Shown: positions 1,868-41,300 of the stretch, one piece after another | How positions within the stretch are numbered: the stretch's first letter is position 1 | Layout: every line of letters begins with the position of its first letter | Source of the DNA: Bacilli bacterium | GTDB taxonomy: Bacteria; Bacillota_I; Bacilli_A; ML615J-28; CAG-698 | Direction of reading: 5' to 3' | DNA length: 64,000 bases | NCBI GenBank assembly: GCA_028702495.1 | Contig: JAQVOS010000001.1 | Coordinates: forward strand, 10,383 to 74,382 | Notes under the pieces: model-generated | What the model saw: the letters and a program-made list of their open reading frames with translations, nothing else | The model's database searches: none | What the model was told of the DNA's origin: nothing | Program-made: the position numbers and the translations under genes

Positions 1868-1913
1868 AATAATACCTCTTTATAGGTTTATTTTACATGA
1901 AAATAGTAATTTT

Positions 1914-1935: not shown

Positions 1936-1960
1936 AAACGTTTTACTTTTCTTACCTACA

Positions 1961-1989: not shown

Positions 1990-1993
1990 TTTG

Positions 1994-2007
1994 GTAACAT
2001 ATGTTAC
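1994..2007. promoter_or_regulatory. Second copy of palindrome GTAACATATGTTAC, immediately downstream of the -10 box (predicted to overlap the transcription start of the Crp/Fnr gene)
   Basis: Read directly; centre-to-centre about 75 bp from first copy. Confidence 0.5.
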
Positions 2008-2019
2008 AAGGGGGATTTT

Positions 2020-10782: not shown

Positions 10783-10784
10783 TC

Positions 10785-16099: not shown

Positions 16100-16379
16100 G
16101 AGAAGACCTCACAAGCGTTTCAATGCGTAAAAGTTCAGGAACAAATTCACCATAACTATGACGATATGTTGGATTGACTTCAATCAATTTACCTTCTTCT
16201 AAACGATGCGTTTTGGTTTTGATATGAACCCAATCAAACATCTCTGCATCTTCTAAAAGGGTTCCTTTGACCCACATTTTAAGAGGAGTCTTTTTCGTAT
16301 CTTCGGGTATATGAGAACTTCGCTCTTGAGGCTCTAAAACAATGCGCTCAATGAGAACCCAACTTCCTTTTTGAATCAT
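16092..16379 (-). CDS. ortA: 2-amino-4-ketopentanoate thiolase alpha subunit
   Basis: 95 aa from ATG at 16379 (MIQKGSW…), ATGA overlap with ord stop, GAGGAAAAG RBS. Confidence 0.6.
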   Translation of the reverse strand: MIQKGSWVLIERIVLEPQERSSHIPEDTKKTPLKMWVKGTLLEDAEMFDWVHIKTKTHRLEEGKLIEVNPTYRHSYGEFVPELLRIETLVRSSHE

Positions 16380-19346: not shown

Positions 19347-19355
19347 TTCCTCAAT

Positions 19356-20585
19356 CTATTCAATGTCATCACGGATAAAGGGCATACTCATACAACGAGG
19401 TCCACCTCTTCCGCGTGATAATTCACTCGATGGAATGGGATAAATCTTGATTCCATGTTCTTCAAGTAGATGGTTGGTGATGTGATTTCGCTCATACACA
19501 ATCACTTCTCCTGGAGCAATCGCCATCGTGTTAACTCCATCATTCCATTGCTCACGATCTGATGCAATGGCATCGCCACCCCCACAAGGGATAAGCGTCA
19601 CAGGTCGCTTTAAGTAATGCGATAAGATCGCGTCTAGCTTTTTCTCAATTGGTTTGACAAATAGTTTCAAATCCCGTTTTGGATCTTTCATTAATTCGAA
19701 AACGCGCATCGACTGATTGATATCACTATGGATGGTGAACTTGTCATAATCAACCTGGGTAAAAACTGTATCTAGGTGCATAAAAGCTCTTGTTTTAGGA
19801 ATGTCAAAGGCGAGTACTTTTTCAAAAGTTGTATTGTTGAAATAGAGAAGTTGTTTGGCAAGACGTTCAATTGAAGCAGGGTGTGTTCTTTGGGAGACTC
19901 CCACAGCTACAATTTTATCGTTTAGCACCATGATGTCTCCTCCTTCAATCGAAGTCGAAGCATCTCTTTTATAATAAATCGAAGGCATTGGATTTCCATA
20001 ATGAGGATGATACCTGAAAATATATTCTCCAAAAATACTCTCACGACTACGACTAGAGGCATACATTTTCCCGAGCATAACTCCTTTACCAATAATGGTA
20101 AAGGGATCTCTCGTAAAATATAGATTAGGCATAGGATCTGTGACAAATGGATAATCACGAATATAATCGGATAACGTTCTTTTAGTGAAATTGGGGATAT
20201 CCACTTTTCTAATTCCAGCCATCATTTTCGCAATCATATCACGGGTTGGAAGTGCCTCTAAATAAGTGCGCAAAATGGAACTCAATGTTTCACTGGTCAC
20301 ATTCGATTCTTTAATAAATTGATTAATAAAGGCTTCTTTCACATTCAGCCCTGAATCAAGGGTCTCTTCAATTAAATCCACCAAATATAGAACTTCAATT
20401 CCTTTGCTTTGGTAAAAGCAAGATAAGGCTTGATGTTCTTCTTTGGCTCGTTCTAACCATGGGATGTCATCGAACAATAATTGTTCTAACATCTTGGGCG
20501 TTAAATGTTCTAATTCTTGTCCTGGTTCATGCAATAGGACACATTTTAAGCGACCAATCTCCGAATTAATTCGTAAAGAATCCAT
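19356..20585 (-). CDS. arcA: Arginine deiminase
   Basis: 409 aa; C-terminal GGGPRCMSMP catalytic-Cys region typical of ADI. Confidence 0.85.
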   Translation of the reverse strand: MDSLRINSEIGRLKCVLLHEPGQELEHLTPKMLEQLLFDDIPWLERAKEEHQALSCFYQSKGIEVLYLVDLIEETLDSGLNVKEAFINQFIKESNVTSETLSSILRTYLEALPTRDMIAKMMAGIRKVDIPNFTKRTLSDYIRDYPFVTDPMPNLYFTRDPFTIIGKGVMLGKMYASSRSRESIFGEYIFRYHPHYGNPMPSIYYKRDASTSIEGGDIMVLNDKIVAVGVSQRTHPASIERLAKQLLYFNNTTFEKVLAFDIPKTRAFMHLDTVFTQVDYDKFTIHSDINQSMRVFELMKDPKRDLKLFVKPIEKKLDAILSHYLKRPVTLIPCGGGDAIASDREQWNDGVNTMAIAPGEVIVYERNHITNHLLEEHGIKIYPIPSSELSRGRGGPRCMSMPFIRDDIE

Positions 20586-20658: not shown

Positions 20659-20696
20659 AAAATAAAAGGGATAGAAAGTAAAATTACTTTCTATCC
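20659..20696 (-). terminator. Rho-independent terminator after crtO-like gene (GGATAGAAAGTA/TACTTTCTATCC stem, U-run on minus strand)
   Basis: 12-bp perfect stem, 4-nt loop, followed on the minus strand by TTTTATTTT. Confidence 0.65.
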
Positions 20697-21200
20697 GACT
20701 TGTTTGTATTGACGATTGGGGTGTTTTTCAAGCAAGTGTTTGATGCGTGGACGATTATAGCGCTGCACAATAATGCAGGGCATATTGACGATAAGACTAT
20801 ACACGAGCATCATCCAACCAACATAGAATGGCGTGAATAAGAAGAAGATCCAAAATAAGAGAATGGGTCCAATATGGGTTGCTTCCCCACGACAAGACTC
20901 AACAAGAAATTTTTCCAGATTTTCATCACGATAATCTTCTAAATGCTTCTTTTGATATCCTTTTTTTCGCCAAACAGCACCTCCATCTGGCAGAAGATGC
21001 TTCCACGATTTCACTTTAAAAAGAGTTTGATACAACTCACCCTCTTTTTCAAATGCATGACTTCGATAAACCCAATGATCGGGGTGAAACAAGCGTTTCG
21101 GTAGATTCAACATGAGTAGGGCACACCCTGATTGAATAATAGGCCATACAATAAAACATAGAAGAATGGTCAGTTCATCACTTAAAAAGAGAACTCTCAT
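20691..21200 (-). CDS. crtO: Glycosyl-4,4'-diaponeurosporenoate acyltransferase-like membrane protein
   Basis: 169 aa; C-terminal …IIVQRYNRPRI… matches the conserved IIVQRYNRPRL block of S. aureus CrtO; ATGA overlap with upstream GT2. Confidence 0.65.
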   Translation of the reverse strand: MRVLFLSDELTILLCFIVWPIIQSGCALLMLNLPKRLFHPDHWVYRSHAFEKEGELYQTLFKVKSWKHLLPDGGAVWRKKGYQKKHLEDYRDENLEKFLVESCRGEATHIGPILLFWIFFLFTPFYVGWMMLVYSLIVNMPCIIVQRYNRPRIKHLLEKHPNRQYKQVG

Positions 21201-22306
21201 GATGGATTCCTCGAACGAATGGTTCTATCTTTCCAAATGACAGGTCGTTTAAATATTTTCTTCACCAGAGATAAGGTGAATAAAACAACAAAAAAGGTAA
21301 ATATGATGGGATATAATACAAGACCCCCCCATTGATTGTGTCCTATTTGATGCGATATTTTTCGTAATATTGGTATCCACAAACGAGTGCCAATTCCGAA
21401 AACAAGAGCCCACCACTCAAGTCCTAAAAGACTATAACGAACAATTTGAATAGGTCCTGATAGGATGGATGCAATGAAGAAGAATACCCCGAGCGAAAGC
21501 ATGAAAGGTGTTTTCATCGCACCAGCAGCCATATTCTTCGTCCAGCCTTGAATTAGCGTCTTAATTCCCAAAGGATACATACGAAAATTTAGCCCAACAT
21601 CTCCGACATAAGTTTGAAAAGAAAGCCCTTTGCGTCGCAACACTTGGCCTAAACTCATGTCTTCAACAATGCTATCTTTAACGCTTTCGTGTCCGCCAAT
21701 CGCAAAATAATCCTTTTTTGATATGAGAATGATGGGGCCATAACAACCAATTGGTTTTTGTTTAGGAATTGCAGTTTGATTGGCAGCAATTTGAATAAGA
21801 TTAAACGGAAGTGATAATTGTTCATATGCGCGTTGTGTTGCATGATAGGGTTGTACTGAAATCGTACATTTCTCTTTTTGATAGAGAGAAGCAAGTCTCA
21901 TAATTGCTTCATGATCAAGACGAACATCACTATCCAAAAACAAATAGACTTCTCCAGTTGCTATCTGACTTCCTTGCCATAAAGCCCAGGACTTACCAAT
22001 CCAACCTTTCGCTTTTTCTTTAATTTCAAGGATTCGAATTGGGTATTCTTTCGCAATAGCGACCGTTTTATCAGTTGAGTCATCATCCACAACAATCACC
22101 TCATGAGGAATGAGAGTTTGCTGCATGAGATCTTGAAGCAATAGTCCAATGGTATGTTCTTCATTCCGACAAGGAATGATGACTGACACTCGTAAAGATG
22201 GATCGTTTAGAGTAACATGAGGAATTTTGGGAATTTTATAAAATAAAATTCCTGCAGCCACGAGTCCGACAAAAACAATAACAAGACGAAGGATGAGAAG
22301 AAACAT
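21197..22306 (-). CDS. crtQ: Family-2 glycosyltransferase (CrtQ-like, 4,4'-diaponeurosporenoate glycosyltransferase)
   Basis: GT2 motifs VSVIIPCRNEE…VVDDDSTD; N-terminal TM helix plus C-terminal TM bundle. Confidence 0.65.
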   Translation of the reverse strand: MFLLILRLVIVFVGLVAAGILFYKIPKIPHVTLNDPSLRVSVIIPCRNEEHTIGLLLQDLMQQTLIPHEVIVVDDDSTDKTVAIAKEYPIRILEIKEKAKGWIGKSWALWQGSQIATGEVYLFLDSDVRLDHEAIMRLASLYQKEKCTISVQPYHATQRAYEQLSLPFNLIQIAANQTAIPKQKPIGCYGPIILISKKDYFAIGGHESVKDSIVEDMSLGQVLRRKGLSFQTYVGDVGLNFRMYPLGIKTLIQGWTKNMAAGAMKTPFMLSLGVFFFIASILSGPIQIVRYSLLGLEWWALVFGIGTRLWIPILRKISHQIGHNQWGGLVLYPIIFTFFVVLFTLSLVKKIFKRPVIWKDRTIRSRNPS

Positions 22307-22310
22307 ATCA

Positions 22311-23864
22311 TCACTTCCTTTTCTTGATAATCTTGTCAGCAGCTAATTTTCCTGTCAAAATCGAAACAGGCATTCCAGCAGGACTAAAAGTCCATTGACC
22401 GCATTGATAGATGTGGGGGATGGTTGTTCGAATGGATTTTCTAATTTGGGGAAAACGATGTTCTGAAGGGATGACCTCATTCGCAAATGACCACCCTGTG
22501 ATGGCTCCATCTGCATTAGAAGTTAATGATTCAATCGTAAGCGGTGTCGAACAACTTTCAAAAACAATCAAGTTTGATAAATCTGGAAGAACACTTTTTT
22601 CTAGAACATCTTTCACTTTTTTAAGAATAAACTTTTTAAATTCTTCCATTTGACGATGATCACTAAAACGTGCTGTCAAATCATAATCAAATAGTGTGCT
22701 AACAATCAAGCTCGATTGCCCATCGGGAGCAAGAGATGGATCCCTTAGTGAGGGACAAGAAATTTCATAAGTTGTATAATCCAAATATTGACTCACCCAT
22801 GTAGATAGATTAGGTGCATCTTTCCAAGTAGAAAGGTTGTGTAGTCCTCGCGAATCAGGAGTATAAAAGCTGTGGATTCCCACATACTTTAATAGCTTTT
22901 CACTATTCATGCGAATGCCAAAATAACAGGTTAGAATCGAATCACTACCATGGCTTTTATTCATTAAAGCACTTAACTTTCTTCCTTTTCTTGAAGGAAG
23001 ATGAGCGAGATTGCGATAAAGAGTCTTAATATTCGCAGCCCACACCAAATCATGATATCCAATGACTTCTTTTGCCTCGGTTGTAATGGTTTTTTGTTTT
23101 TGATCGACTGCTATCACACGTGTTTTACAAGCGATCTCGCCACCATATTTTAGGATCACTTCTTCTAATTTTTTTGTAAGCGTTCCTGTTCCTCCTAAAG
23201 GATAGCGATAATCCGTATAAAACCCAAAATAACTCAGAGCAAAGAAAGCAGGCGTGTTTTTAAAAAAGTGCTGAGTAATCATATCGATTAAAGATTGGTT
23301 CTGAGTAAATTGTTTAAGATAAGTTACGACATCTCCGTGAAAGGCTTTCACCTTTTTCATACTACGATTATATTTGATAAGCCATGGAAGAAGGGTGTGA
23401 AGCAGATACTTAGAATCTAGCTTTCCTTCTAAAAACAAGGGGTTTTCGATTCCATATAAAACATCCATATACATCATGACTTGTCGTATTTTTTCAGTAA
23501 TAATGTCAATGGCATTTTTTTCATCAGGAAAATGCGATTTCAAAAGTTTGGCATAGTCATTCAATGATTCTTTATTGTCAATGGAAATCATATCATTTTT
23601 GATTCCAATCTGAACAGGATTCGAAATAAATGTCATATCAATTCCTAAGGACTTAATCATTGGTAATAGAATTCCTGAATCTTCAAACGCACGAATCCCC
23701 TGATCAAAAGAAAATCCTTCGCGTTCAAATGTTCCGACAAGCCCACCTACTTTTTCTTGTTGTTCACATAAGAGAACACGTACACCCGCCTTGGCAAGAT
23801 AGGCAGTGGCAGTTAATCCAGCAATGCCACCCCCTACAACAATCACATCATAGGAACGCATCAT
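22311..23864 (-). CDS. FAD-dependent desaturase/oxidase of the phytoene-desaturase (CrtI/CrtN/CrtP) family
   Basis: N-terminal dinucleotide fold VIVVGGGIAGLTA; about 517 aa as for CrtN/CrtP. Confidence 0.7.
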   Translation of the reverse strand: MMRSYDVIVVGGGIAGLTATAYLAKAGVRVLLCEQQEKVGGLVGTFEREGFSFDQGIRAFEDSGILLPMIKSLGIDMTFISNPVQIGIKNDMISIDNKESLNDYAKLLKSHFPDEKNAIDIITEKIRQVMMYMDVLYGIENPLFLEGKLDSKYLLHTLLPWLIKYNRSMKKVKAFHGDVVTYLKQFTQNQSLIDMITQHFFKNTPAFFALSYFGFYTDYRYPLGGTGTLTKKLEEVILKYGGEIACKTRVIAVDQKQKTITTEAKEVIGYHDLVWAANIKTLYRNLAHLPSRKGRKLSALMNKSHGSDSILTCYFGIRMNSEKLLKYVGIHSFYTPDSRGLHNLSTWKDAPNLSTWVSQYLDYTTYEISCPSLRDPSLAPDGQSSLIVSTLFDYDLTARFSDHRQMEEFKKFILKKVKDVLEKSVLPDLSNLIVFESCSTPLTIESLTSNADGAITGWSFANEVIPSEHRFPQIRKSIRTTIPHIYQCGQWTFSPAGMPVSILTGKLAADKIIKKRK

Positions 23865-25708
23865 TATGACTCCTCCTTTTTGATATATTTCATAATCTTC
23901 TCTATTTGAATTCCAACTCCGCCTTCACGACACCAAATACAACGTTCTTCGAACGTATGTATTGCATCAAAAGAAACCTTGCTTTTAGCAAGAGCTTTTT
24001 TAGCTCCCTGCCAATTACCGAGGACGACTCGACGCATGATGCCACGAGCATCGAGGTCATGCACTCTAACACATGTTGGATGTTCACATAGGCGACAACG
24101 ATTGGCTTCTTCACGAATCGTGCGTTCTTCTTTTGAAGATTCACGGAATAACTCGCTTTTTTTAAAAGGGGGAGCAACAAGATGTACTTGTTCTTTGATA
24201 TTGGAATCAAACACAAAAGGCACCATTTTATATTTTCTCAAAATCACATTGGCTGCAGTTAATCCTGAGGTAGTAACCGTAGGCGTCCCTGTCCCCATGA
24301 CAGTGGATTCTCCAGAACAAAAAACATTACTCCATTTTGTTCTAATATGTTGACGATGGAACATATGTTGTCCTAACATTTGTTTTGGTCCCGCCACCGC
24401 TCCCTTATTTTTAAGGCAATAACGTTCAATGGTTCTTGGGGTTGCAAGTTCTGTATAGCGTACTTCCTTTTTGAAGCCTGGAAAACGACGTTCAATCACA
24501 TCAAGAAGTCGTTTAACTTCTTTATCTTTTTGAGTGCGATAAGTTTCTTTATTATGTGACCACTCTTCAAATGAAGGTCCAACAGCGATGACAATGTGCT
24601 CATCCTCTTGACATAATGTTTTATCATCAATCGACATAATATACAAGGTAACTTCACTTTCATCGAGTTGTTTAGGATTTCCAACTACCATTTCAATGGC
24701 GGCAGTATCATCAGGTATAACACTTTTAGAAACAGCGGTATATAAGACGACACTTGGGTACGTTGGCACTTGCTTTCTAAAAGTTTCACGAATTTTTAGG
24801 CTTGTTAAAGAAGGGTCTATTAATTTATCATAGAAATTCCAAACAGTTCCTGTATAAACGATATCGCGAGCAGACAAAGTGGTGCCATCATCTAAAAGAA
24901 CACCTGTGGCTTCGTTTTTCTCAAATAAAATCTTTTCGACTTCATGAGAATAGATCATATCTCCCCCGTGTTCTTCAATGACTTTCTCGAGTTTTCCAGG
25001 TAGATAAAGGGTTGAGCCTGCAGGGTAGTAACTACCTCCTACATGATTATCAACAAACATGACTGCTGCTAAAACAGCAGGAGCTTCTTCCACAGTTGCA
25101 TAACAGTAAGTAGAGGTTAGTTTATCGAAAAAATTAAAAATCTCTGGATTTTTAAAATATTGCTTCAGTAAACTTTTGGCACTTTGATTGAGTAAACTTA
25201 AAAATTTAATATAGGAAAAGGGATGTTTTAACATGCTTTTTAAAGCCAGCCTCGGGTTCGTTTCCTCAGGACTTGTATAGGTGGGATTCTCAACCATAAC
25301 ATGGGTGTACATCCTCATCATATCGCGATAAAACCGATGAATGTTTCCCGCTTCATCGGGAAATACACCGGCTAGTTCATCTGCAAATTTTTCTACATCA
25401 GCCCAAAAACGAATTCTTTTGCCTTCATAATTGACAACATATAATAAATCATGTTTGATGATATCGATGGGTTCTTCTAACACGTTGAAGACAAAACGAT
25501 GAGCATTAAATCCGCGTTCACCAAATCCATACAACATCGTTGATCCTTGATCAAAGATTCGATTTCCCCTTTTAAAGATTCCACAAGATCCTCCAGGGTT
25601 ATAGTTGTTATCAATCACTCCAACTTTCAGTCCTCTTTTTGCTAATAAACTTCCGGCGGTCAATCCTGAAAGTCCGCCACCAATGATTAGTACATCATAA
25701 TTTATCAT
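23864..25708 (-). CDS. Phytoene-desaturase-family FAD oxidoreductase with C-terminal cysteine-rich (putative Fe-S, GltD/NfnB-N-terminal-like) extension
   Basis: N-terminal VLIIGGGLSGLTA FAD fold; about 500-aa desaturase core plus a roughly 110-aa tail containing CRLCEHPTC…GNWQGAKKAL…CIWC. Confidence 0.6.
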   Translation of the reverse strand: MINYDVLIIGGGLSGLTAGSLLAKRGLKVGVIDNNYNPGGSCGIFKRGNRIFDQGSTMLYGFGERGFNAHRFVFNVLEEPIDIIKHDLLYVVNYEGKRIRFWADVEKFADELAGVFPDEAGNIHRFYRDMMRMYTHVMVENPTYTSPEETNPRLALKSMLKHPFSYIKFLSLLNQSAKSLLKQYFKNPEIFNFFDKLTSTYCYATVEEAPAVLAAVMFVDNHVGGSYYPAGSTLYLPGKLEKVIEEHGGDMIYSHEVEKILFEKNEATGVLLDDGTTLSARDIVYTGTVWNFYDKLIDPSLTSLKIRETFRKQVPTYPSVVLYTAVSKSVIPDDTAAIEMVVGNPKQLDESEVTLYIMSIDDKTLCQEDEHIVIAVGPSFEEWSHNKETYRTQKDKEVKRLLDVIERRFPGFKKEVRYTELATPRTIERYCLKNKGAVAGPKQMLGQHMFHRQHIRTKWSNVFCSGESTVMGTGTPTVTTSGLTAANVILRKYKMVPFVFDSNIKEQVHLVAPPFKKSELFRESSKEERTIREEANRCRLCEHPTCVRVHDLDARGIMRRVVLGNWQGAKKALAKSKVSFDAIHTFEERCIWCREGGVGIQIEKIMKYIKKEES

Positions 25709-27513: not shown

Positions 27514-27546
27514 AAAAGGTACTCTGCTGCACAGAGTACCTTTTTA
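27514..27546. terminator. Bidirectional rho-independent terminator between convergent genes (GGTACTCTG/CAGAGTACC stem flanked by A-run and T-run)
   Basis: 9-bp stem, 5-nt loop, TTTTT downstream and AAAA upstream. Confidence 0.65.
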
Positions 27547-27548
27547 CA

Positions 27549-29330
27549 TTATTTATTCTTTTGATATAAGTTTTTTTGAGTGTTAAACATATTGGCATAT
27601 AATCCATTAATCATTAACATCTCTTCATGAGTTCCTTGTTCAGCAATTTTACCTTTATCAATGAGATAAATGTAATCTGCATCTACAACAGTGGATAAGC
27701 GATGAGCAATGATAATCATTGTTTTGTCGGTTGCTTTAAGAATGAGTTTATTAATTCTTTCTTCTGATAATGGATCAAGCGAACTGGTTGGTTCATCTAA
27801 GATGTAGATATCTGCTTTACTCGCAAAGACACGTGAGATGGCGATGCGTTGAACTTCACCTCCGCTGAATACAGCTCCATCACGATTAAATTCTCGTGTG
27901 ACAGGTGTATGGATCCCCATTGGAAGTGTTTCCACTTTTTTCTTCATGCCAACCTTATCCAAAGCTTCCCAAACAATGGCCTCATCCTCAGGAGTTTCTA
28001 CTTTTCTCATGAGCACATTTTCACCAATTGTTAATGCATAGATTTGGAAATCCTGGAAGACTACCGAATACTTCTCACGAATGGATGTTGCATCCATTTC
28101 TTTATACTCGATATCATTCATTAGAAGGGTTCCCATCGTTGGACGATAGAAATGGAGGAGGAGTTTTGTAAGCGTGGTTTTTCCACCCCCATTGGGTCCA
28201 ACAATCGCGATTTTTGAACCTCGTTTTAAATTAAAACGAATTTGATTTAAACTAAAGAAATCAACACCTGCATATTGGAATGATAAATTGTCAAGTTTGA
28301 GATCACGGAATGTTTCAATTGATTGCCCTTTTTGAGTTTCCAAAACGGGTTGATATTCAATAAACCACAAGAAGTCACCAATGTAGAAGGAGTTTTCTCT
28401 TAATGAATTGAGGAAGTTGACAGAATCGACAAAATGAGAGAAGAATTGCAAAGCAGCATTGATTGTTGAAGCAAAAACGCTGACTTTCATTCCTTCAAAG
28501 AATAGTTGATAGGTAAGATAGGCATAAGTTGATCCTTGCTCAATCAGTCCTTTGGAGACATTATTAATCGAGCGAAGGGCAACAACAGTTCGATGGGTTT
28601 TTGCATATTTTTGGTTGATAATATTTGCACTTTCGCGATATCGTTTGATGAGTAATTCACTGATGGGAGTGGTTTTAATTTCTCCCGCGAATTTTTGACG
28701 ATAAAAGGTTCGATTGATGTAATTATACATCCGTCGATCTGTTTCTGTTTCTTTACTCCACAAATACCATTTCTTATTAATCGAGCTTACAATGACTAAA
28801 TTGATAATCGATGATATCAAAATAATGACAATTAAAATAGGATCTGTGACAATAATGAGGGTCCCAATGGCGATAGTAGACGTAACCGATGTTGCGAATT
28901 TTATGAGTTCTTCAAAGACACGAATCCCTCTAAATACACTTTCTCGCAAGGCACGAGAATAGTTATCATAGAACTCTGGATTATCAAATGATTCCATATC
29001 GATGTATTTGACTTTTTTGAAGATGAAATTTTGCATCTTTTTCACAAATACAGCCCGATATCGTGGACTAATATAAGCGTTATAACTGGTTCGAACGAGA
29101 ATTGTAATCGTAACGACCACCAAATACCATAAGAGAGATGTAAATAAGAGTCCGATGGCTTCGCCACTCATAACCGATTCAATGGCGCGCTTGATGATAA
29201 GAATCTTACTTACCGACAGAACCACCGAGGCAGCGATATGAAGGATAGATGCAATCACATAGATAGGACAAAAGCGGAAGACATAACCCAAGACCTGAGT
29301 AATATTCTTAACGATCTTCATGATTTTCAC
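27549..29330 (-). CDS. ABC exporter, fused permease/ATPase (heterodimer partner B)
   Basis: TM domain, Walker A GPNGGGKTT, signature FSGGEVQR, Walker B IYILDEPTS. Confidence 0.85.
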   Translation of the reverse strand: MKIMKIVKNITQVLGYVFRFCPIYVIASILHIAASVVLSVSKILIIKRAIESVMSGEAIGLLFTSLLWYLVVVTITILVRTSYNAYISPRYRAVFVKKMQNFIFKKVKYIDMESFDNPEFYDNYSRALRESVFRGIRVFEELIKFATSVTSTIAIGTLIIVTDPILIVIILISSIINLVIVSSINKKWYLWSKETETDRRMYNYINRTFYRQKFAGEIKTTPISELLIKRYRESANIINQKYAKTHRTVVALRSINNVSKGLIEQGSTYAYLTYQLFFEGMKVSVFASTINAALQFFSHFVDSVNFLNSLRENSFYIGDFLWFIEYQPVLETQKGQSIETFRDLKLDNLSFQYAGVDFFSLNQIRFNLKRGSKIAIVGPNGGGKTTLTKLLLHFYRPTMGTLLMNDIEYKEMDATSIREKYSVVFQDFQIYALTIGENVLMRKVETPEDEAIVWEALDKVGMKKKVETLPMGIHTPVTREFNRDGAVFSGGEVQRIAISRVFASKADIYILDEPTSSLDPLSEERINKLILKATDKTMIIIAHRLSTVVDADYIYLIDKGKIAEQGTHEEMLMINGLYANMFNTQKNLYQKNK

Positions 29331-31098
29331 CTAAATACTTACTGGCTTGAGAAATAAACATTTCTTTATATTTTCCATTTAAAGCAAGAAGTTCATCGTG
29401 TCTTCCATGTTCGATGATTTCTCCTTCTTCAAAGAGATAGATATGATCCGCATTCACAGTGGTTGTGAGACGATGGGAAATAAAGACAATCGTACGATCG
29501 CGTCCTAATGCAAGCATGTTTTGATAGACTTGAGCTTCGGCTAAAGGATCAAGAGCACTGCTCGGTTCATCGAGAATAAAGAGGTTATAATTTTGGGCAT
29601 ATCCTCTGGCAATGGCAAGACGTTGCATTTGTCCTCCCGAGAATATTGCACCTGTTTTATTGAATTCACGCGTCACTTGCGTATTTATTCCTTCAGGCAA
29701 TTGATTCACATACGTATCAAGGCCACTAAAGGCCAAGGCTCGACGAACCAAATCGATATCTTCATCGGTTTCTGGTTTTCGGAAGATGACATTTTCAGCG
29801 ATCGATACGGCATAAACTTCCACGTTTTGAAACACCGCTCCGACTTGTTTTCGTAAGGAGGTGGCATTGGTTTCTTTGTAATCTTGACCATTGATGAGAA
29901 TTGTTCCCTCTTCAACATCGTAAAGGCGTAAAAGAAGTTTCACTAAGGTCGTTTTACCCGCTCCATTGGAGCCAACGATGGCAATCTTTTCACCCTTTTT
30001 AATTTCCATATGAATGTTTTTTAAGACAGGGTGTCGCCCATCGTAGGAGAATGTTGCTCCTTTTACTTCCAAGTGTTGAAAGGGGGTAGCAAGCGGGGTA
30101 AAGGGAAGACCTTCAATTTTTGATTCCATTTGTAAGACTTCATAAGGAATCTTACATTCAACCGCACTATTTTGTAAGTCACCAATCGAGGAAACAAACG
30201 AAGATACCAAGGTGGATAGTGTGGTTGCAGCAACCGTCAGGGAAGCAAAAGCAGCATTGCTGAAGTTTTCAATGGTGACAAAAGCAAGAACCCCTAAGGT
30301 GATGGGATAAATGGAGGTTATTAGTAAGTCCCCAATATAGTGAAGAATGGTCTTCTTTTTAGTGATATCATCAATGACTGCAATGATTTCATCACTTGCT
30401 TTTAAATTGTTTTCAAGAAGAATTCCTTCAATTTGTGTGGTCTTTAAATCTGCCATTGCATCTTTAATAAAGAAGGTCCGATTAATGTATCCTCGTTCGC
30501 GATAGAATGGACGTTGACGATTGAGGGTTTCATGATTCATCTTCCCAATTTTGATGCGAAGAATCATGTAAATAGCACCAATTAAAACTGCATAAACGAC
30601 GGCTAAATAATGCATTGTAAAAATGACAATAAAGACACTGACACTTTGTACAATAATACGAGCAACATTATTAATGCCCATGGCGCTTTGATAGATGTAT
30701 TGTGTTCCATCTTCTAATGCTCGAGTATAGTCATTTAAAAACTTGGGATTCTCATGAAAATCATAATCAATAGAATCGAGTTTTTGAAAAAACATAATGG
30801 ATAAATCTGCTTTAAAATTACGCTCAACATAACTGTTGTAGTAAGCAATGATGATATCTAAAAAGTTACAAGCAACATAAATAAGTCCCATCACTACAAT
30901 CACAATGATTGCTTCTTTGAAACGATTCTCATCGGATCCCTGAGATTCAAAAATAACCACTAATCGGTCAATGATTCGGATCGGAATAAGGGTGGTAATT
31001 GTTGCAACCGCAATACTTAAAAGTTGAATGAGAATATCATAAGGATATTTACTAATTAATAAATGATACGATTTTAGGGCATTTTTCACTTTTGGCAA
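29308..31098 (-). CDS. ABC exporter, fused permease/ATPase (heterodimer partner A)
   Basis: TM domain, Walker A GSNGAGKTT, signature FSGGQMQR, Walker B LFILDEPSS; overlaps partner gene. Confidence 0.85.
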   Translation of the reverse strand: MPKVKNALKSYHLLISKYPYDILIQLLSIAVATITTLIPIRIIDRLVVIFESQGSDENRFKEAIIVIVVMGLIYVACNFLDIIIAYYNSYVERNFKADLSIMFFQKLDSIDYDFHENPKFLNDYTRALEDGTQYIYQSAMGINNVARIIVQSVSVFIVIFTMHYLAVVYAVLIGAIYMILRIKIGKMNHETLNRQRPFYRERGYINRTFFIKDAMADLKTTQIEGILLENNLKASDEIIAVIDDITKKKTILHYIGDLLITSIYPITLGVLAFVTIENFSNAAFASLTVAATTLSTLVSSFVSSIGDLQNSAVECKIPYEVLQMESKIEGLPFTPLATPFQHLEVKGATFSYDGRHPVLKNIHMEIKKGEKIAIVGSNGAGKTTLVKLLLRLYDVEEGTILINGQDYKETNATSLRKQVGAVFQNVEVYAVSIAENVIFRKPETDEDIDLVRRALAFSGLDTYVNQLPEGINTQVTREFNKTGAIFSGGQMQRLAIARGYAQNYNLFILDEPSSALDPLAEAQVYQNMLALGRDRTIVFISHRLTTTVNADHIYLFEEGEIIEHGRHDELLALNGKYKEMFISQASKYLGENHEDR

Positions 31099-31177
31099 CT
31101 CCTAAATAAATGATAACCAATTATAGCATATAAAACCATTGTTTGCAAACTGTAATTCATGAAAAAAAGGTGATTTC

Positions 31178-31885
31178 TCACCCAATCAAACGAATTAAAT
31201 AGTAGAGGATAACGATGAATAAACTTGGAATCATATTCGCAATTTTCAGTTTTTCTCCTCTTAAAAAATTGAGTCCAATACAAGCCACAATGGTATAACC
31301 AACCGCATTAAAAGAATCCATAAATGCTTGACTCATAAAATCCCCTAAAGCCCAGGATAGTAAGGTAATGCTTCCTTGATAGAGAAGGACGAGAATGCTT
31401 GAAAATAAAACCCCGATTCCTAAAGTAGAAGCAAGTATCATCGCTGTAATCCCGTCAATGGCCGCTTTGAGATATAATACATTTTGATCTCCACTAGCAG
31501 CATTAATAGAACCAATAATTGCCATAGCTCCGACACAGAAAATTAATGAAGCAGTAATAAACCCTTCAGAGAACGCTCCTTTATTCATTTTCTTTTCAAT
31601 GACTTTCCCAAACCGAAAAAGGCGATCATCAATTTTTAACATTTCGCCAATAAAAACTCCCACTACTAAACTTACAAGTAATAGTAGTTCATCATGAGAA
31701 GTAAGACGTCCTCCTTCCATTGTGACCATGGATTTTAACACCCCGATAATTCCGAAGATTAAAACGACAATTCCGACGACTTTTAAGATGGATTCTAATA
31801 TGTCTTTTTTAATCCATTTTCGAAAAACAATTCCAAGTAATCCACCGACAATGATGGATCCAAAATTTGCTAAATTACCTAGCAT
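31178..31885 (-). CDS. DUF554-family membrane protein
   Basis: Glycine-rich polytopic membrane protein MLGNLANFGSIIVGGLLG…; start chosen at internal ATG to avoid 40-nt overlap. Confidence 0.5.
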   Translation of the reverse strand: MLGNLANFGSIIVGGLLGIVFRKWIKKDILESILKVVGIVVLIFGIIGVLKSMVTMEGGRLTSHDELLLLVSLVVGVFIGEMLKIDDRLFRFGKVIEKKMNKGAFSEGFITASLIFCVGAMAIIGSINAASGDQNVLYLKAAIDGITAMILASTLGIGVLFSSILVLLYQGSITLLSWALGDFMSQAFMDSFNAVGYTIVACIGLNFLRGEKLKIANMIPSLFIVILYYLIRLIG

Positions 31886-33015
31886 ATTAACTCCTTTTCG
31901 TAACGGGTTTCGCGACACTGGGCAAATTTTTGATATCGAATAATTGCCCTTTGAATGTCGTTGATATAGGCACGATACTCATCCTTTTCAAACCAAATGT
32001 TCTTAACGATTAAAACACCTTCTCCTTTAGGAGTCGAGAGTTCAATCCGCCCGATAAAGGTTGTTCCTCGTAAGATGGGTAAAGTATAATATCCAAATTG
32101 GCGCTTTGCTTCAGGTGTATAAATTTCCCAAGTGTAAGAAAAATCAAATAAAGCTTTAATCCATTTACGATCCCAAATAAAACTGTCCAAGGGAGCAATA
32201 AATTCTACTCTTACCTCAGCCTCATCACCCAGTTCATTCCAATAATGGGCATCTTCTTTCACATAGAGACAACGTTCTTTTATGCATTCTACTTCACAAG
32301 TACAGATTCGACCTTCTTCTAGTAATTCCCCGATGAGGTCTTTTCTATCTTTTGTAAGGAAAGATAATCCTAAATAGGCATCTGATGGCCGATCCCATAG
32401 AAGGCCTATCGCTTTAATTCGGCGATAGATAAGATGCTTATAAATCGTATGAAGATCATATTCTTTAAGTTCGAGAAACCCCAATTCACTAGCCAGTGAA
32501 AAATAGCGAATATTTCGATTTCGATGATGGATTAAAATTTGACCTCGCTGATAGAGCGAATCTAGGGAGGCTCTTACCTCTTTCGTTTTTCCCCAAAAAT
32601 GCATAATATAGTTTTTGTTATCAAAGTCTTGCGAAGAAATAGGACCTTGGGTACGAACGATATCAAGGGTTTCTTCATCCATGTGGGATACTTTGAAATA
32701 AGTATCGACCGTTTTCTCAAATACTTGGCGAATCGGGAAGAAATAGGGCCACTCACTGGTCTCATAGATGCAGAGGTTTTTATCATATTGTTCTAGTAAG
32801 GTTCGCTTTTCATATAGTTCATCCAATAGCATGGACTTTTGATATCCCAAAATTCGACTATTAAGTAAAATATCGGGATTTCTTCCACAAACATCGACTG
32901 GATCAAACTGAATCGAAGTGAGGGCGTGAACTACCTCTACAACATTCTTAAAATAATCACCTATGAGGTGATGCTTTTTAAGCATGAACAATTTAGCCCT
33001 TTCTTTTGATATCAT
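31879..33015 (-). CDS. YcaQ/AlkZ-family winged-helix DNA glycosylase-like protein (interstrand crosslink repair family)
   Basis: 378 aa; Q36-F-D38 matches the YcaQ-type QxD catalytic motif near the N-terminus; overall similarity in spacing to E. coli YcaQ. Confidence 0.5.
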   Translation of the reverse strand: MISKERAKLFMLKKHHLIGDYFKNVVEVVHALTSIQFDPVDVCGRNPDILLNSRILGYQKSMLLDELYEKRTLLEQYDKNLCIYETSEWPYFFPIRQVFEKTVDTYFKVSHMDEETLDIVRTQGPISSQDFDNKNYIMHFWGKTKEVRASLDSLYQRGQILIHHRNRNIRYFSLASELGFLELKEYDLHTIYKHLIYRRIKAIGLLWDRPSDAYLGLSFLTKDRKDLIGELLEEGRICTCEVECIKERCLYVKEDAHYWNELGDEAEVRVEFIAPLDSFIWDRKWIKALFDFSYTWEIYTPEAKRQFGYYTLPILRGTTFIGRIELSTPKGEGVLIVKNIWFEKDEYRAYINDIQRAIIRYQKFAQCRETRYEKELIC

Positions 33016-33154
33016 ACTTCTTCTCCGTTTTGATTATTATAAACGAATTTATTGATTTATACAATGATTATATCAAAAAAGGTCCCCAAGTGAAGGAATA
33101 CCTCTTTACTAGAGAGCCCAAACCGCAAAGGACCTTTTTTTATAACCACTACAT

Positions 33155-33367
33155 TTATTCTTTAACTTCAACAATTTTCTTTACTTTCTTTTTGAGTTCG
33201 ATTCGAGGAACGATGATAACTCTTCCACATCCACAACATTCTAATTTATAATCAACTCCTGTTTTTAAGACTTTCCAATTTTTAGAACCACAAGGATGGA
33301 CTTTCTTAAATTCGAGGATTTCATCTAATTGATATAGATTAGCGTTCATCATGAGGGGGCACTTCAT
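33155..33367 (-). CDS. DUF951-family small protein (Bacillus YyzM-like) with Cys-rich zinc-ribbon-like motif
   Basis: 70 aa; HPCGSKNW…CCGCGR pattern; location next to mscS/parA/rsmG as in Bacillus ori region. Confidence 0.5.
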   Translation of the reverse strand: MKCPLMMNANLYQLDEILEFKKVHPCGSKNWKVLKTGVDYKLECCGCGRVIIVPRIELKKKVKKIVEVKE

Positions 33368-34139
33368 CTTGGGAAAGATGATATCCTTTTTCGAGAATAA
33401 CTTCTAGAACCACTCTTTTGATGGCTCGTTCTACTTCAGATTGCTGTTCACTCAACGTTTTGGCGGTGATGGTAATGACAATGCCTGTTTGTGTCAAATC
33501 GGTCATACCAATTACATTGGGGCCTTCTACGATTTGCGGGAAAGAATCTACCAATAAAGGAAGTCGTTCCTGAAGAATCGCAATCATCTCATCAATTGGA
33601 GTATTGTGATTAACCGTAATCGAACAACTGGCCAGAGAATAGTGACGTGAGTAATTGATTACTTCTGAGACTTCTCCGTGGGCAAAAATCTTAAGTTCCC
33701 CTTGTTGATTTAAAAGATGAGTTGAACGCGTTCTAATGGCGATGACTTTGCCTTTAAATCCCTTTATTTCAACAATGTCATCCACTTCATAATAGTTTCC
33801 GAAAATGATGACAATGCCTGATAGAATATCATGGATGAGTTTATGTGCTGATATTCCGATGATGATGGCAATAATTCCGAGTCCCCACAAGAGGGCAGTG
33901 ATGTTAAAACCCCAAACACCCAAAATAGCAAGAATGATCACTAATATGATGAAATAGGTAAGGATTTTTTTGAGTAAGAGAGCGACTGATGAAGCCCTTT
34001 TATTGGCTGCTTTAAGTCGGGCTTGGTGCGTGACAATATGAAGAAAAATCAATAAAATGGCGGCAACCAAACCAATAATGATGGTAATAATAATCGATCT
34101 TTGATATTCATTGAAAAAATTTTTAATCCATTCAATCAT
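33339..34139 (-). CDS. Small-conductance mechanosensitive channel (MscS family)
   Basis: 266 aa, three N-terminal TM helices then MscS beta-domain-like region. Confidence 0.7.
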   Translation of the reverse strand: MIEWIKNFFNEYQRSIIITIIIGLVAAILLIFLHIVTHQARLKAANKRASSVALLLKKILTYFIILVIILAILGVWGFNITALLWGLGIIAIIIGISAHKLIHDILSGIVIIFGNYYEVDDIVEIKGFKGKVIAIRTRSTHLLNQQGELKIFAHGEVSEVINYSRHYSLASCSITVNHNTPIDEMIAILQERLPLLVDSFPQIVEGPNVIGMTDLTQTGIVITITAKTLSEQQSEVERAIKRVVLEVILEKGYHLSQDEVPPHDER

Positions 34140-34169
34140 TTTAATACCTCCTCAAATAAACTAGTATTT

Positions 34170-34946
34170 TCAAGCACGATGGTTGGCAATAATTTCTAAT
34201 GCGAGTTCGCGATACTCTTTGCTACCTCGTGAGTTGTAGGCAAACTTTAAAACACTTTTTCCATACATCGGAGCTTCCTGTAAATGGCTTGAGCGATTGA
34301 TGATGGTTTTGAATGTTTTTTCGGGAAACAACTCATGTACTTTATCAGCAATTTTATATCCAAAAACATTGCGATTATCTAATTTTGTAAGAAGGATTCC
34401 TTCAACAGTGAGGGTTCCTTTTATCTTTTTCTTTTCACTTTGGATTTGATTGATTTTTTGAACCATTTGTGTCAGGGCATCATAAGCAAAAAAATCACAT
34501 TCAACGGGGATGATGACGGAGTCACTTGCGAACAAAGCATTATCAACAATCACCCCAAGAGATGGGGGACAATCGAGAAGGATGTAGTCATAATCATCTT
34601 CAACTTGAGTGAGTTTCCGAGCAAGAATAAGAGACTTATTTGTCTCATTCGCGAGACTCCCTTCCATACGAGATAAATGGATTGAAGCTGGAATAATATG
34701 AAAGTTGCGATCGATGGTTTCATAAATGGTTTCGCGAATGTCTATTTCGGTCGCGAGCAATTCATAAGAGGTAGCTTCTACCAATTCTCTTGAAAGCCCT
34801 AATCCAATCGTTGCATTAGCTTGTTCATCGAGATCAATTAAAAGGACGGTTTTATTCTCGTTGGCAAGAGCTGCCCCTAAATTGATGGCGGTCGTTGTTT
34901 TGCCAACCCCACCCTTTTGATTGGCAATGGCAATGATTTTCCCCAT
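34170..34946 (-). CDS. parA: ParA/Soj-family chromosome partitioning ATPase
   Basis: Deviant Walker A KGGVGKTT; 258 aa. Confidence 0.85.
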   Translation of the reverse strand: MGKIIAIANQKGGVGKTTTAINLGAALANENKTVLLIDLDEQANATIGLGLSRELVEATSYELLATEIDIRETIYETIDRNFHIIPASIHLSRMEGSLANETNKSLILARKLTQVEDDYDYILLDCPPSLGVIVDNALFASDSVIIPVECDFFAYDALTQMVQKINQIQSEKKKIKGTLTVEGILLTKLDNRNVFGYKIADKVHELFPEKTFKTIINRSSHLQEAPMYGKSVLKFAYNSRGSKEYRELALEIIANHRA

Positions 34947-34963
34947 AAAAACTCCCTCTCTTC

Positions 34964-35605
34964 TTATAAAGGTTTCTTTTTCATCGTCGCAAAAGGACGC
35001 GGATATTCTTTGGCTGTTGCTTCATTTTTACGAATGGTGATGAGGGTTCTTTTACCCATACCACTGCTTAATTCATAAGGAGTGATACGAACAACACTCG
35101 CATGAAGACAATTTAGAGCATGAGTTATGCCTTTTAACTCTTCTTCAAAATCGGGCCCTTTCATCGCAACGAGGACTCCATTTACTTTTAGTAACGGAAT
35201 GCATAATTCAAGGAGCATGGATAAGGATCCCACAGCTCGTGAAGTTGCAACATCGAATGTTTCTCGTAATGAAGAGCAATTCTCTGCTCGGTCATTTACT
35301 ATTATAACATCTTTTAAATCGCATTTCAAAACCAATTGGTTTAAAAAAACACATTTTTTTCCTGTAGGCTCAATTAAGGTCACTTTTAGATGAGGATAGA
35401 CAATCTTGAGTGGGACGCCTGGAAAGCCTGCTCCCGTTCCTACATCTACTAAAGTTGTAACTTTTGATAAATTGATGGCTTTTCCAAGAGCTAGAGAATC
35501 TTCAAAATGTTTGATGGTAACTTCATTGTAATCTGTAATGGAGGTTAGATTATACTTCTCATTTTCACTGACTAAAAAATCATAATATGTTTTAAAGCAA
35601 TCCAT
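34964..35605 (-). CDS. rsmG: 16S rRNA (guanine527-N7)-methyltransferase
   Basis: SAM motif DVGTGAGFPG; 213 aa; downstream of mnmG. Confidence 0.85.
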   Translation of the reverse strand: MDCFKTYYDFLVSENEKYNLTSITDYNEVTIKHFEDSLALGKAINLSKVTTLVDVGTGAGFPGVPLKIVYPHLKVTLIEPTGKKCVFLNQLVLKCDLKDVIIVNDRAENCSSLRETFDVATSRAVGSLSMLLELCIPLLKVNGVLVAMKGPDFEEELKGITHALNCLHASVVRITPYELSSGMGKRTLITIRKNEATAKEYPRPFATMKKKPL

Positions 35606-38336: not shown

Positions 38337-41300
38337 CTATCTTACTTCCACAGTAATGGTTGTTACTTTATTAATAAGTTCAGTTAATGTATGCCCAATG
38401 AGAATGAGATTTCCTGATCCGGTTGTAAAGCGAATGATGTGATCGGTTGCGGTTCCAAACGTATTGTTGGCAATGGTAGCACTTCCATTGGTTCCCATTT
38501 CTAAATTACAATTTCCAAAAATACTACCAGTTGTTACATTGTTACTGATAAGAAGATTCTTAAGGGTTGTTCTGAAGCGGATGCTTTCAGCTGCCTGACC
38601 TATATCACGATAACGATTACTGATAACAGAATTTGTACTAATAGATGTAAATTTATTATAGGAGATGACAAAGTTCTCAAGGGTTGTGTCTGCAATACTA
38701 TTCCCGAGTCGAATGATTCCAGTGTGACTTGCAAGTCCACGTGAAGTAATAATGTTGTAACTGATTTCAACATTCGATATATTAGCTCCACCTGTCACAT
38801 AAACCAAGCCTGTGTAGTTTCCAGATTGCGAGGTGTCATACTTAAATTCCAATCCACGTATGGTAACATCGCTTGCAGTAATACCAACTGTCCCTGTAAG
38901 GATGGCTTCTTCGCTTCTCGCAAGTGTACCATTAGGATCAATATCATCATTTAATCCAACAAGGTTGATGGCTTTATTAATCATGCAGTCCCCATTGTAC
39001 GTTCCAGGAAGAATGGTAATGGTTCCCCCGGCTACAGTTGCATCAATGGCTGCTTGAATGGTGGAATAAATGGTTCCACCAATTCGATAATCAATGCCAT
39101 CAATGGTGATTGACGTGGCTTGAGTATCACTATAAACAAAGACATTTCCTTCTAAAGTTGTTAAATCATGAATAAGTATTTCAAAGGTATCTATGATTGA
39201 TGTATCAATTTTAGAAGTCGCTGTAACAATGAGTGTTCCAGCCTTTTTACAAGTAATAACACCCTCGTCAATATCCGCTAACTCTAAGTCATTGACGCTC
39301 CAGGTTACTTCTTGTAGTGTTTGAATAGGGTCAAGTTTGACGGTTAAATTGACTATTTTCCCAATTTGAGATGTATTCTCACCTTGAATCGTAAGTTTAG
39401 TTGGTAATGCTTCAACAATCATGGTAACAGTTAAATCACTTGTGATATAACTTAAGTCCTTATCCCACTTTACAAATTGAAATCCTGGAAGGATCCCAAT
39501 CGTTGGTGGCTCAACCGATGATCCTGATAGAACATCTTCTTCAGCGAGTGTGATTCCGTCATAGTCAACAAATGTGACAGTCACTTTCTTTTTGGTAATG
39601 GTTTCATAGTATTCACTGAAATACAAATGAACATAGGTAGCATCCTTCATATCTACCACTCCATCTTGAGTGATATCAGCAAGGCGGAGGGCACCACTTT
39701 CAAGGAGTGTAATCCCTGTAACATGTTTTTGAATCGCTTCAACATCACTAACATTCACGACTCCATCGAAATTGACATCTCCAAAAGTTTCATATTGGGC
39801 GTAATACCTTGAAGATGGGCTATTATTTGAATCTCTTATGTCAATGATACTTTCATTCGTTACCCCTGTTAACACACATTCAAGATCGCTTGCTGATACT
39901 TCTTGGAACGGAACCCCATCAACATATACCCATACGTTGAGTGCAAGGTCCGAACCACTGTAATCCCAGGTTACTTTGTAAGTTCCCACATCGTTTTCTA
40001 CTCTTACATTGGCGATTAAATCAAATTTTTCGGATGATATTGGAATGGGGATCGTGACTGTCGTTGCATCCTTATAATAGATTTTAACACTCACAGCGGA
40101 CATTCCGCTTATATTAGATAATCCAAAACTAGTTTGATTTTTCTTCTTCAAAGGATTGGTTGCAAGAATGTTATTCTCTTCATCTAAATATTCAATACGA
40201 TAAACATAACCCACTCCTACTTTTGAACAACTGATCATTCCAGCATCATCAAGAAGAGTACTATGATGAAACGCGAAACTTTTTTCAAATGCTTCTTTAT
40301 CTAAGTTTTCCATTGGAATAACAGAACGTTTCGCAGGAATCTCTGTCGTATCCAAAATGGTGCCCGTTCTGTCAAGAAGTCTTGTGGTGACCTTCTGTCC
40401 ATTCACTGTGACAAGAATGGCTCCGACTGTGCTTCCACCCTCAGTAAACCGATAAGCAATTTTATCGGTATTATAGGAGAGGGTAGCATCCATCGCTTGC
40501 CCTCGCTCGTTATCAGCTGATGGGGCTTGCATATAGACCGTTCCTTTAGTCGAATCCGTGGAAACGACACCTTGATATAATGGATAGCTTCTCACATAAA
40601 TATGATTATTCCCAGCCATCGCTAAATCAACACCATACTGATCAAAGAGTGCTTTCCAACGATCATATCCTGATGACTTGGAAGCTCCATTTATTCCATT
40701 AAACCATTCATAATGTTGGGCAACAAAAATGTATTGGGAGGGATTACTCTCAACCACTTGACAGAACCACTCTTGCGCTTTAATCACTTCAGCGGGGTCG
40801 GACAAGCTTTCCGTATTAAAATTGATGAATAATACATTATTATATTTGAAGTAGTAACATACTCCTTCTTCGCCATTATATCCATTTAAAGGAAAGTTAT
40901 TGACTGATTTAAAAAATTGGTTGCTGTTTTTGGAGTTGGTTCGATCCATATTATCATGGTTGCCATTCACACTAGCCCATAGGTAATTTCCGTAATGGTC
41001 ATTCGTATACATATCTTTCCAGAACGAATAACTACCACCCCAAGCAGCCACATCACCAGTAGAGTACATCATATCAACACTAGGGTCAATTCCAAGAGCT
41101 GTATCAATCATCCCCATCGCATTGATGAGTCGCCCTGGCAATGGTAAATAAGCATGCCAATCGCTTATCCATACGAAACTGAATTCTTCAGCTCCTGCCG
41201 TTTTAAAATAATGAGTACTACTCATCGTAGAAGAACCGACTTGATACATATATTCGGTATCACTTTCCAAATCGGTTAAATTAGCGGTACATGTCTGAAT

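Follow-up and report, generated by a model that had tools for sequence, protein, structure and literature searches.

A YcaQ-type DNA glycosylase gene probably inserted before a resident DUF554 gene and a conserved ABC exporter pair in an uncultured Bacilli lineage

A 64,000-nucleotide stretch of a Bacilli bacterium assembly (GCA_028702495.1, contig JAQVOS010000001.1, positions 10,383 to 74,382; hereafter the window) carries at 33015..27549 a run of four minus-strand open reading frames (ORFs), which encode a YcaQ-like DNA glycosylase, a DUF554 membrane protein and two ATP-binding cassette (ABC) half-transporters. An earlier note made from the sequence had located these four frames correctly and had read them as a co-operonic efflux and crosslink-repair module, possibly conferring resistance to an alkylating natural product. 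The ycaQ-like gene (31879..33015; 378 amino acids) is preceded by a small gene called as DUF951 (33155..33352, minus strand). Sequence inspection and public gene calls were used to refine the starts of the three genes that follow it. The DUF554 gene (31178..31885, minus strand; 235 amino acids) is likely to start at the ATG at 31885, 5 bases past an AAGGAG, and overlaps the TAG stop codon of ycaQ by 7 nucleotides (ATGCTAG; the junction reads AAGGAGttaatATGctag). The overlap claimed earlier is thus real, with a size of 7 and not 40 nucleotides; it places a strong ribosome-binding site for DUF554 inside the 3' end of ycaQ, and the same 235-residue gene is called in public assemblies. The first ABC gene (ABC1; 29308..31089, minus strand; 593 amino acids) probably begins at the GTG at 31089, nine bases past an AGGAG, giving a gap of 88 nucleotides after DUF554 where 80 had been given, and the second (ABC2; 27549..29321, minus strand; 590 amino acids) is likely to start at the ATG at 29321, which makes it overlap ABC1 by 14 nucleotides. 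The GC content is uniform over the window.

The 378-residue protein matches the Pfam profile PF06224 ('DNA glycosylase AlkZ-like', HTH_42) with 121 bits against a cutoff of 25.9, over residues 30-363 and profile positions 2-328 of 329; no NCBIfam model matches either this protein or the DUF554 protein. NCBI lists an identical protein under the name 'crosslink repair DNA glycosylase YcaQ family protein [Bacilli bacterium]', and the YcaQ-family identity is already present in public annotation. The QxD motif highlighted in the earlier note, Q36-F-D38 (codons at 32902..32910, minus strand), aligns to the catalytic Q45-I-D47 of E. coli YcaQ (sequence from MG1655) and to Q56-I-D58 of Thermobifida fusca AlkX (TfuAlkX; Protein Data Bank (PDB) entry 9ZD6), with Q36 and D38 invariant across 64 homologues. 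A PDB sequence search returned 9ZD6 as its sole match, with E 5.6e-22 when started with the protein and 2.5e-56 with a 14-sequence profile; AlkZ (5UUJ) was not found by the profile search at E <= 1 and was recovered only by fold comparison. The phmmer alignment to 9ZD6 sets FSYTWEIYTPEAKRQFGY opposite FHYRLEIYVPAAKRVHGY and pairs WEIYTPEAKR with LEIYVPAAKR, with Y299 corresponding to TfuAlkX Y326, E297 to E324 and R305 to R332. Y299, E297 and P301 are invariant in the 64 homologues, and R305 is invariant in 14 homologues and nearly so in the 64. The codons of F292-Y309 (32089..32142, minus strand), which include Y299, would hence specify the equivalent of the AlkX DNA-binding loop, whose role, along with that of its tip tyrosine (TfuAlkX Y326), has been described (PMC13303869). 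An AlphaFold model built from 64 sequences (predicted local distance difference test 91.1; predicted template-modelling (TM) score 0.91), compared by Foldseek, displays a predicted fold of three winged-helix motifs and a C-terminal beta subdomain; Foldseek ranks AlkX (9ZD6_A; E 1e-22, TM 0.82) above AlkZ (5UUJ; TM 0.65) and the Lhr C-terminal domain. Given the PF06224 match and the alignment of its QxD to the catalytic motif, the protein is an HTH_42 glycosylase of the QxD type, and on this point profile and structural model alike bear out the earlier note.

This assignment to a subfamily bears directly on the proposed function. Q-Phi-D has been defined as the signature of the YcaQ-like (YQL) proteins and (Q/H)-Phi-Q as that of the AlkZ-like (AZL) proteins (Bradley et al. 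2022, PMC9040887); the third position is here Asp38, invariant throughout the clade. AZL genes are enriched in genotoxin clusters, where ABC transporters are among their neighbours (PMC9040887), whereas YQL proteins have been reported always outside biosynthetic clusters and are ascribed a general repair role (PMC9040887; 2026 AlkX paper, PMC13303869). With a QxD in the present protein, the premise that AlkZ homologues serve in self-resistance beside exporters, on which the earlier note had drawn, belongs to the other subfamily. Replacement of either catalytic residue in E. coli YcaQ (Q45A, D47A) abolishes unhooking of interstrand crosslinks (ICLs) (PMC7367128), and all YQL enzymes tested so far excise 7-methylguanine (7mG) and unhook nitrogen mustard ICLs (NM-ICLs) (PMC9040887). 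By homology, the activity of the Firmicutes-type clade to which the protein belongs would likewise comprise 7mG excision and the unhooking of N7-linked ICLs. The protein thus resembles E. coli YcaQ and AlkX in Pfam family, aligned QxD, loop tyrosine and fold, and its gene resembles theirs as a single gene outside a biosynthetic cluster, with a sigma-70-type promoter and no LexA box. With Streptomyces sahachiroi AlkZ and other AZL glycosylases it shares the HTH_42 superfamily fold; unlike them it has a QxD motif, lies in a window devoid of a biosynthetic cluster, and is encoded by a gene that is single-copy within the window.

Loci encoding YcaQ homologues were collected by a profile scan of metagenome contigs, exact-protein look-ups and a reference-genome scan (one locus). 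The nearest relatives, P0002 and P0003, show 56% and 55% identity, and the next shows 43%. The 55% sister (loci L005/L006) is collinear with the window across mnmG-rsmG-parA-mscS-DUF951-ycaQ-DUF554-ABC-ABC, followed by thioredoxin-system genes and a carotenoid-type desaturase, a collinearity that is whole-region synteny and not specific linkage. Farther out the arrangement dissolves. The nearest outgroups (P0004, P0008, P0009) have neither DUF554 nor ABC exporter neighbours; among 85 loci with 31-41% identical homologues (700 kb of flanks in total, with at least 2.5 kb downstream in 46 and at least 2.5 kb upstream in 47) DUF554 is found in none and a full-length adjacent ABC exporter pair in one, L089, where it stands immediately upstream of the YcaQ-like gene. 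For the more distant YcaQ-like loci combined the counts are 0/88 for DUF554 and 1/88 for an adjacent exporter pair. The linkage of ycaQ to DUF554 and the ABC pair is therefore confined to two closely related lineages. A conserved partner for the YcaQ clade was also considered and rejected: when the ORFs within 3 kb were clustered for 78 loci, no neighbour family occurred in more than 5 of them. These highly variable neighbourhoods of the Firmicutes-type clade differ from those of the Streptomyces YQL genes, which are invariant. At individual loci neighbours of a repair or sanitation type were seen, namely an Ogt/MGMT-type methyltransferase gene (PF01035; L091 3936..4445) 430 bp downstream of the YcaQ-like gene and, in the P0005 lineage (L007 7263..8001), a NUDIX hydrolase gene overlapping the ycaQ start together with a GNAT gene. 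In E. coli K-12 ycaQ sits in the msbA-lpxK operon, directly downstream of these genes (L003 1622..5622), and msbA encodes an ABC exporter; this adjacency looks coincidental. It is generally taken as functionally unrelated, and the window would offer a like case of co-transcription with functionally unrelated neighbours.

Viewed from the DUF554 gene, the same region appears far more stable. The protein gives a full-length match to PF04474 (214 bits), the family of E. coli YqgA and B. subtilis YdfK, for which a literature search returned no functional report; here the gene stands in a lineage-conserved DUF951-DUF554-ABC-ABC order. DUF554 orthologues form a dense series from 95 down to 49% identity in Bacilli and Acholeplasmataceae metagenome-assembled genomes (MAGs). 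At L094, where DUF554 is 75% identical, the order is mnmG-rsmG-parA-mscS-DUF951-[556-bp spacer]-DUF554-ABC-ABC with no ycaQ, and tblastn finds no ycaQ remnant there. The spacer (L094 6445..7000) is non-coding and AT-rich (28% GC) and lies exactly at the position of ycaQ; it may be a deletion scar, or else regulatory or small-RNA sequence. At L095 (DUF554 64% identical) the order is DUF951-(10 bp)-DUF554-ABC-ABC, again without ycaQ, and the arrangement is conserved down to about 60% identity at this locus; at L096-L098, with more distant DUF554 orthologues, neither the ABC genes nor ycaQ adjoin. Identities over eight shared genes place L094 nearer the window than the ycaQ-bearing L005: mnmG, rsmG and parA are respectively 79, 69 and 88% identical between window and L094, 76, 63 and 83% between window and L005, and 75, 64 and 82% between L005 and L094. 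These values suggest lineage relations of the form ((window, L094), L005) with L095 outside. Since L094 lacks ycaQ while standing nearer the window, ycaQ would have been acquired either a single time, with a later loss in L094, or on two occasions at one and the same site; under either history it is an accessory gene and DUF554-ABC-ABC a stable unit. In keeping with this, the ABC proteins of the window and L005 are 86% identical, more than parA or mnmG, and the YcaQ proteins 55%. In the comparisons with L005 and L094 the ABC pair reaches 86-88% identity against 76-79% for mnmG, a mark of strong constraint.

Several further features of these DUF554 neighbourhoods were observed. The order rsmG-parA(soj)-mscS-DUF951 (33339..35605, minus strand) occurs without parB/spo0J beside parA, as it does in L005, L094 and L095. 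A gene for a 365-residue EEP-family protein (PF03372) immediately precedes DUF554 in L096 (5883..7714) and L097 (5902..7705); we entertained the idea of an AP endonuclease hinting at a link of DUF554 to repair and dropped it, as the NCBIfam EEP matches are weak, generic and far below their cutoffs. An alpha/beta hydrolase gene follows DUF554 in L097 and L098 (L098 7001..8466), and such genes likewise lie after the L095 ABC pair and beside the fifth ABC gene of the window (4346..5110). In L098, on a 1.8-Mb Bacilli contig, DUF554 has bacteriophage exclusion (BREX) defence genes upstream of it (11..4261), which encode PglZ, BrxL and an Eco57I-type methyltransferase.

The signals between the genes divide the four ORFs into two units. 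Upstream, the DUF951 gene is followed by a terminator hairpin (33075..33140, minus strand; -22.2 kcal/mol, then a U-run), which isolates ycaQ from mscS-DUF951. Directly past it lies the extended -10 element pointed out in the earlier note, TGATATAAT at 33075..33067 with TTCACT 16 nucleotides upstream (the first candidate, TTCACT-16-TGaTATAAT, 33094..33067, minus strand); it is present in the window and absent from the sister L005. A second candidate, TTGTAT-17-TATAAT (33064..33036, minus strand), retains in L005 both its TATAAT (33041..33036) and a TTG-containing -35 element at 17 nucleotides. The two candidates overlap and together span 33036..33094. Promoter-like matches in the region show no excess over shuffled sequences (22 against 21.6), so that conservation alone gives the candidates weight. 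Regulation of ycaQ by the SOS response was considered and dropped, as no LexA/Cheo-box match was found near the gene; the matches over the whole window number 12, below the shuffle mean of 15.4. At the other boundary, the end of DUF554 overlaps an intrinsic-terminator-like hairpin (GGGTGA-GAAA-TCACCT followed by T7; 31161..31183, minus strand), and a putative extended -10 promoter for the ABC pair, TTGCAA-17-TGcTATAAT, follows at 31120..31148 (minus strand).

This DUF554-ABC1 spacer was aligned over four lineages, namely the window, L005, L094 and L095. TTTGCA and TGnTATAAT are invariant in all four, including those without ycaQ, while the spacer between them and the flanks vary and contain indels. 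Three lineages keep the hairpin structure with different loops, and in L095, where a T-run again comes after it, the stem has a wholly different sequence (ACGACT/AGTCGT); the fold energies in the four lineages range from -7.6 to -9.4 kcal/mol. An invariant promoter core around a variable spacer, together with a hairpin maintained through a change of stem, indicates that both are functional elements, and a conserved terminator and promoter at this position make the ABC pair a separate unit. Judged from sequence alone, then, the four genes contain an internal terminator and promoter and lack a co-conserved order, features at odds with a single operon. The co-operonic arrangement proposed earlier appears to hold for ycaQ and DUF554, which form a predicted two-gene unit bounded by terminators, and to fail for the ABC pair. 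Beyond the latter a strong bidirectional terminator (27514..27544; -20.8 kcal/mol, z-score -6.6) separates ABC2 from a convergent thioredoxin-like gene. A link of the pair to this gene and the adjacent thioredoxin reductase gene, in the manner of CydDC-like thiol export, was rejected in view of the convergent orientation, the strong terminator and the absence of such genes beside the L095 pair.

The exporter pair named in the earlier note is likewise supported. ABC1 matches PF00005 with 111 bits and PF00664 weakly, aligns over its full length to Sav1866 and MsbA, has a nucleotide-binding domain closest to those of TM288 and ABCB1, and contains Walker A, SGGQ and Walker B-Glu. ABC2 matches PF00005 and lacks a PF00664 match, has canonical nucleotide-binding motifs and is 32% identical to ABC1; the NCBIfam matches of both proteins are to generic exporter models and sub-threshold. 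Both are therefore ABCB-type half-transporters, each fusing a transmembrane domain to a nucleotide-binding domain whose motifs are intact, and as the products of adjacent, overlapping paralogous genes they probably form a heterodimer. Fused domains, adjacent overlapping genes and canonical Walker A, signature and Walker B-Glu motifs are likenesses to the systems exemplified by Sav1866, MsbA and TM287/288. Unlike in Sav1866 and MsbA, the transmembrane domains are divergent, as reflected in the weak or absent PF00664 match. Heterodimers of the TM287/288 type have one degenerate ATP site, whereas here both sites look catalytically competent. The window holds five ABC exporter genes in all: this pair, a second pair (55835..59432, minus strand) and a single gene (2634..4349, minus strand). 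At such a density an exporter near any given gene is unsurprising. The second pair consists of overlapping half-transporters 27-35% identical to the pair at 27549..31098, without a significant PF00664 match; the fifth gene has a normal PF00664 domain, and the density of exporter genes is itself unusually high.

Annotation of the 64 kb revealed no polyketide synthase, nonribosomal peptide synthetase or other genotoxin biosynthesis genes. The ycaQ gene lies in the origin-proximal mnmG-rsmG-parA core region, and both the window and the syntenic loci carry housekeeping and catabolic genes with no genotoxin cluster at ycaQ; the other genes of the window encode, among others, thioredoxin reductase, a thioredoxin-like protein, peptidase M3, DegV, BioY, a P-type ATPase and an EAL-domain protein. 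The only set resembling secondary metabolism is of the C30 carotenoid type.

Based on these observations we propose, with a probability of about 0.8, that a general YcaQ-type glycosylase gene was inserted before a resident DUF554 gene, beside an independently transcribed ABC pair, and that no resistance cassette is involved. By homology, the concave surface formed by the three winged-helix motifs would bind duplex DNA, and the Q36-x-D38 motif and the Y299 loop would position the lesion; the enzyme would then hydrolyse the N-glycosidic bond of N7-alkylguanines and unhook N7-linked ICLs, leaving abasic sites for base excision repair, a general and not a toxin-specific defence. The genome comparison shows ycaQ as an accessory gene inserted between DUF951 and DUF554 in a small subset of this uncultured Bacilli lineage, with a promoter that it brought or acquired and with translational coupling to the resident DUF554 through the 7-nucleotide overlap. 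Downstream, the ABC pair is an older and strongly conserved unit that has a promoter of its own and occurs whether ycaQ is there or not. As the block is found in both states and the ABC promoter is its own, the adjacency of repair gene and exporter would reflect the site of insertion and not a functional cassette.

Certain points weigh against this proposal. With 6-7 bp and about -8 to -9 kcal/mol the hairpin after DUF554 is a short one, and read-through from ycaQ-DUF554 into the ABC genes is accordingly possible; the 7-nucleotide overlap is kept in both ycaQ-bearing lineages, which is compatible with selection for co-expression; the relations of the four lineages rest on percent identities and not on a tree; 64 kb of the genome was viewed, and a genotoxin cluster could lie elsewhere; and the protein shares only about 20% identity with E. 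coli YcaQ, with N80-L81 in place of TfuAlkX E101-A102.

The last of these points leads to the strongest of the alternatives, a minor one nonetheless: that a protein with the YcaQ fold and motif acts mainly on another substrate, such as bulky or cationic N7/N3 adducts or lesions of gut or anaerobic metabolism, and not on nitrogen-mustard-type ICLs. Apart from the low identity, which is 18% to TfuAlkX in the structural alignment, it departs from E. coli YcaQ and AlkX in carrying N80-L81 for the E-A pair of the winged-helix 1 (WH1) wing and F99 for the tryptophan of the putative crosslink sensor (W124, alpha-F). The AlkX authors propose species-specific tuning of substrates in just this sensor/WH1 region, and the neighbours of the clade elsewhere include Ogt-type methyltransferase, NUDIX and GNAT genes. 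However, the catalytic QxD and the tyrosine of the DNA-binding loop are conserved, TfuAlkX E101A is without effect, A102 works via main-chain atoms, and AbaAlkX of A. baumannii is active with Ser as its sensor residue and Ala in place of E101 (PMC13303869). Neither the W124 sensor nor the E101-A102 residues are strictly required in characterised enzymes, and, as noted, the YQL enzymes tested so far all act on 7mG and NM-ICLs.

Well below this stands the notion that the insertion of ycaQ produced a new lineage-specific stress unit, in which partial read-through past the weak terminator leads to joint expression of the crosslink glycosylase with a membrane protein and an exporter that deal with one and the same electrophile, or that the Firmicutes-type YQL clade, with its N80-L81 and F99, recognises a class of lesion so far undescribed for YcaQ or AlkX. 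Marginally less probable still is a true functional pairing of ycaQ with DUF554 that is independent of the ABC genes, for instance in transport of an alkylating compound or a repair by-product. The overlap with its strong ribosome-binding site, kept in both ycaQ-bearing lineages, and the confinement of the two genes between terminators speak for such a pairing. Against it, DUF554 is resident and vertically inherited, as seen in its orthologue series; of six lineages examined that carry it (with the window and its sister L005 counted in), five have it without ycaQ; and none of the 88 other YcaQ-like loci has it. Moreover, DUF554 is coupled in like manner to DUF951 in L095, 10 bp away, which makes tight packing a property of the site. 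The idea put forward in the earlier note, that all four genes constitute a single (self-)resistance cassette which combines efflux with repair and is directed at a natural product that alkylates or crosslinks DNA, is the least credible of all: the four genes are tightly packed on one strand with a weak terminator between DUF554 and ABC1, in-cluster AlkZ-like genes do neighbour ABC transporters (PMC9040887) and the distant L089 has its exporter pair, but the motif is that of the YQL proteins, the window is free of genotoxin biosynthetic genes, the linkage is restricted to two lineages with DUF554 in 0/88 and an exporter pair in 1/88 of the distant loci, and the ABC pair is served by a conserved promoter of its own, persists with DUF554 in L094 and L095 without ycaQ and is among the most conserved genes of the origin-proximal core region.

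Elsewhere in the window two further gene sets and a single gene were observed. At 20691..25708 (minus strand) lies a staphyloxanthin-type C30 carotenoid set in this uncultured Bacilli MAG, comprising two CrtN/CrtP-like FAD desaturases (517 and 614 amino acids, the latter with a Cys-rich C-terminal extension), a family-2 glycosyltransferase and a CrtO acyltransferase (PF18927). At 9724..20585 (minus strand) the genes of the arginine deiminase pathway (arginine deiminase, ornithine carbamoyltransferase and carbamate kinase) adjoin ornithine-fermentation genes encoding a 746-residue aminomutase with a B12-binding domain, a MutL-like protein (PF13941), 2,4-diaminopentanoate dehydrogenase and a pyridoxal phosphate enzyme; together these look like a complete arginine-to-ornithine Stickland-type route. 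Finally, a 1092-residue metallophosphatase (38337..41615, minus strand) combines a purple-acid-phosphatase N-terminal domain with a dockerin type I domain; in a Bacilli-type MAG this is an uncommon find, and it hints at surface anchoring of a cellulosome-like kind.

Returning to the favoured proposal of a general repair gene inserted beside a resident block, the lesson is that an ABC exporter beside an HTH_42 glycosylase should be read as a sign of a genotoxin-resistance module only if the glycosylase has an AlkZ-like motif and the linkage is conserved. Beyond the correct annotation, the significance of the ycaQ locus is small. Its variable neighbourhoods in the clade, and its capacity to be gained and lost at a single site, fit a dispensable, general-purpose repair role of the Firmicutes-type YcaQ-like proteins. 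What is truly conserved as a unit, in the origin-proximal core of this uncultured Bacilli lineage, is DUF554 together with the divergent ABC pair.

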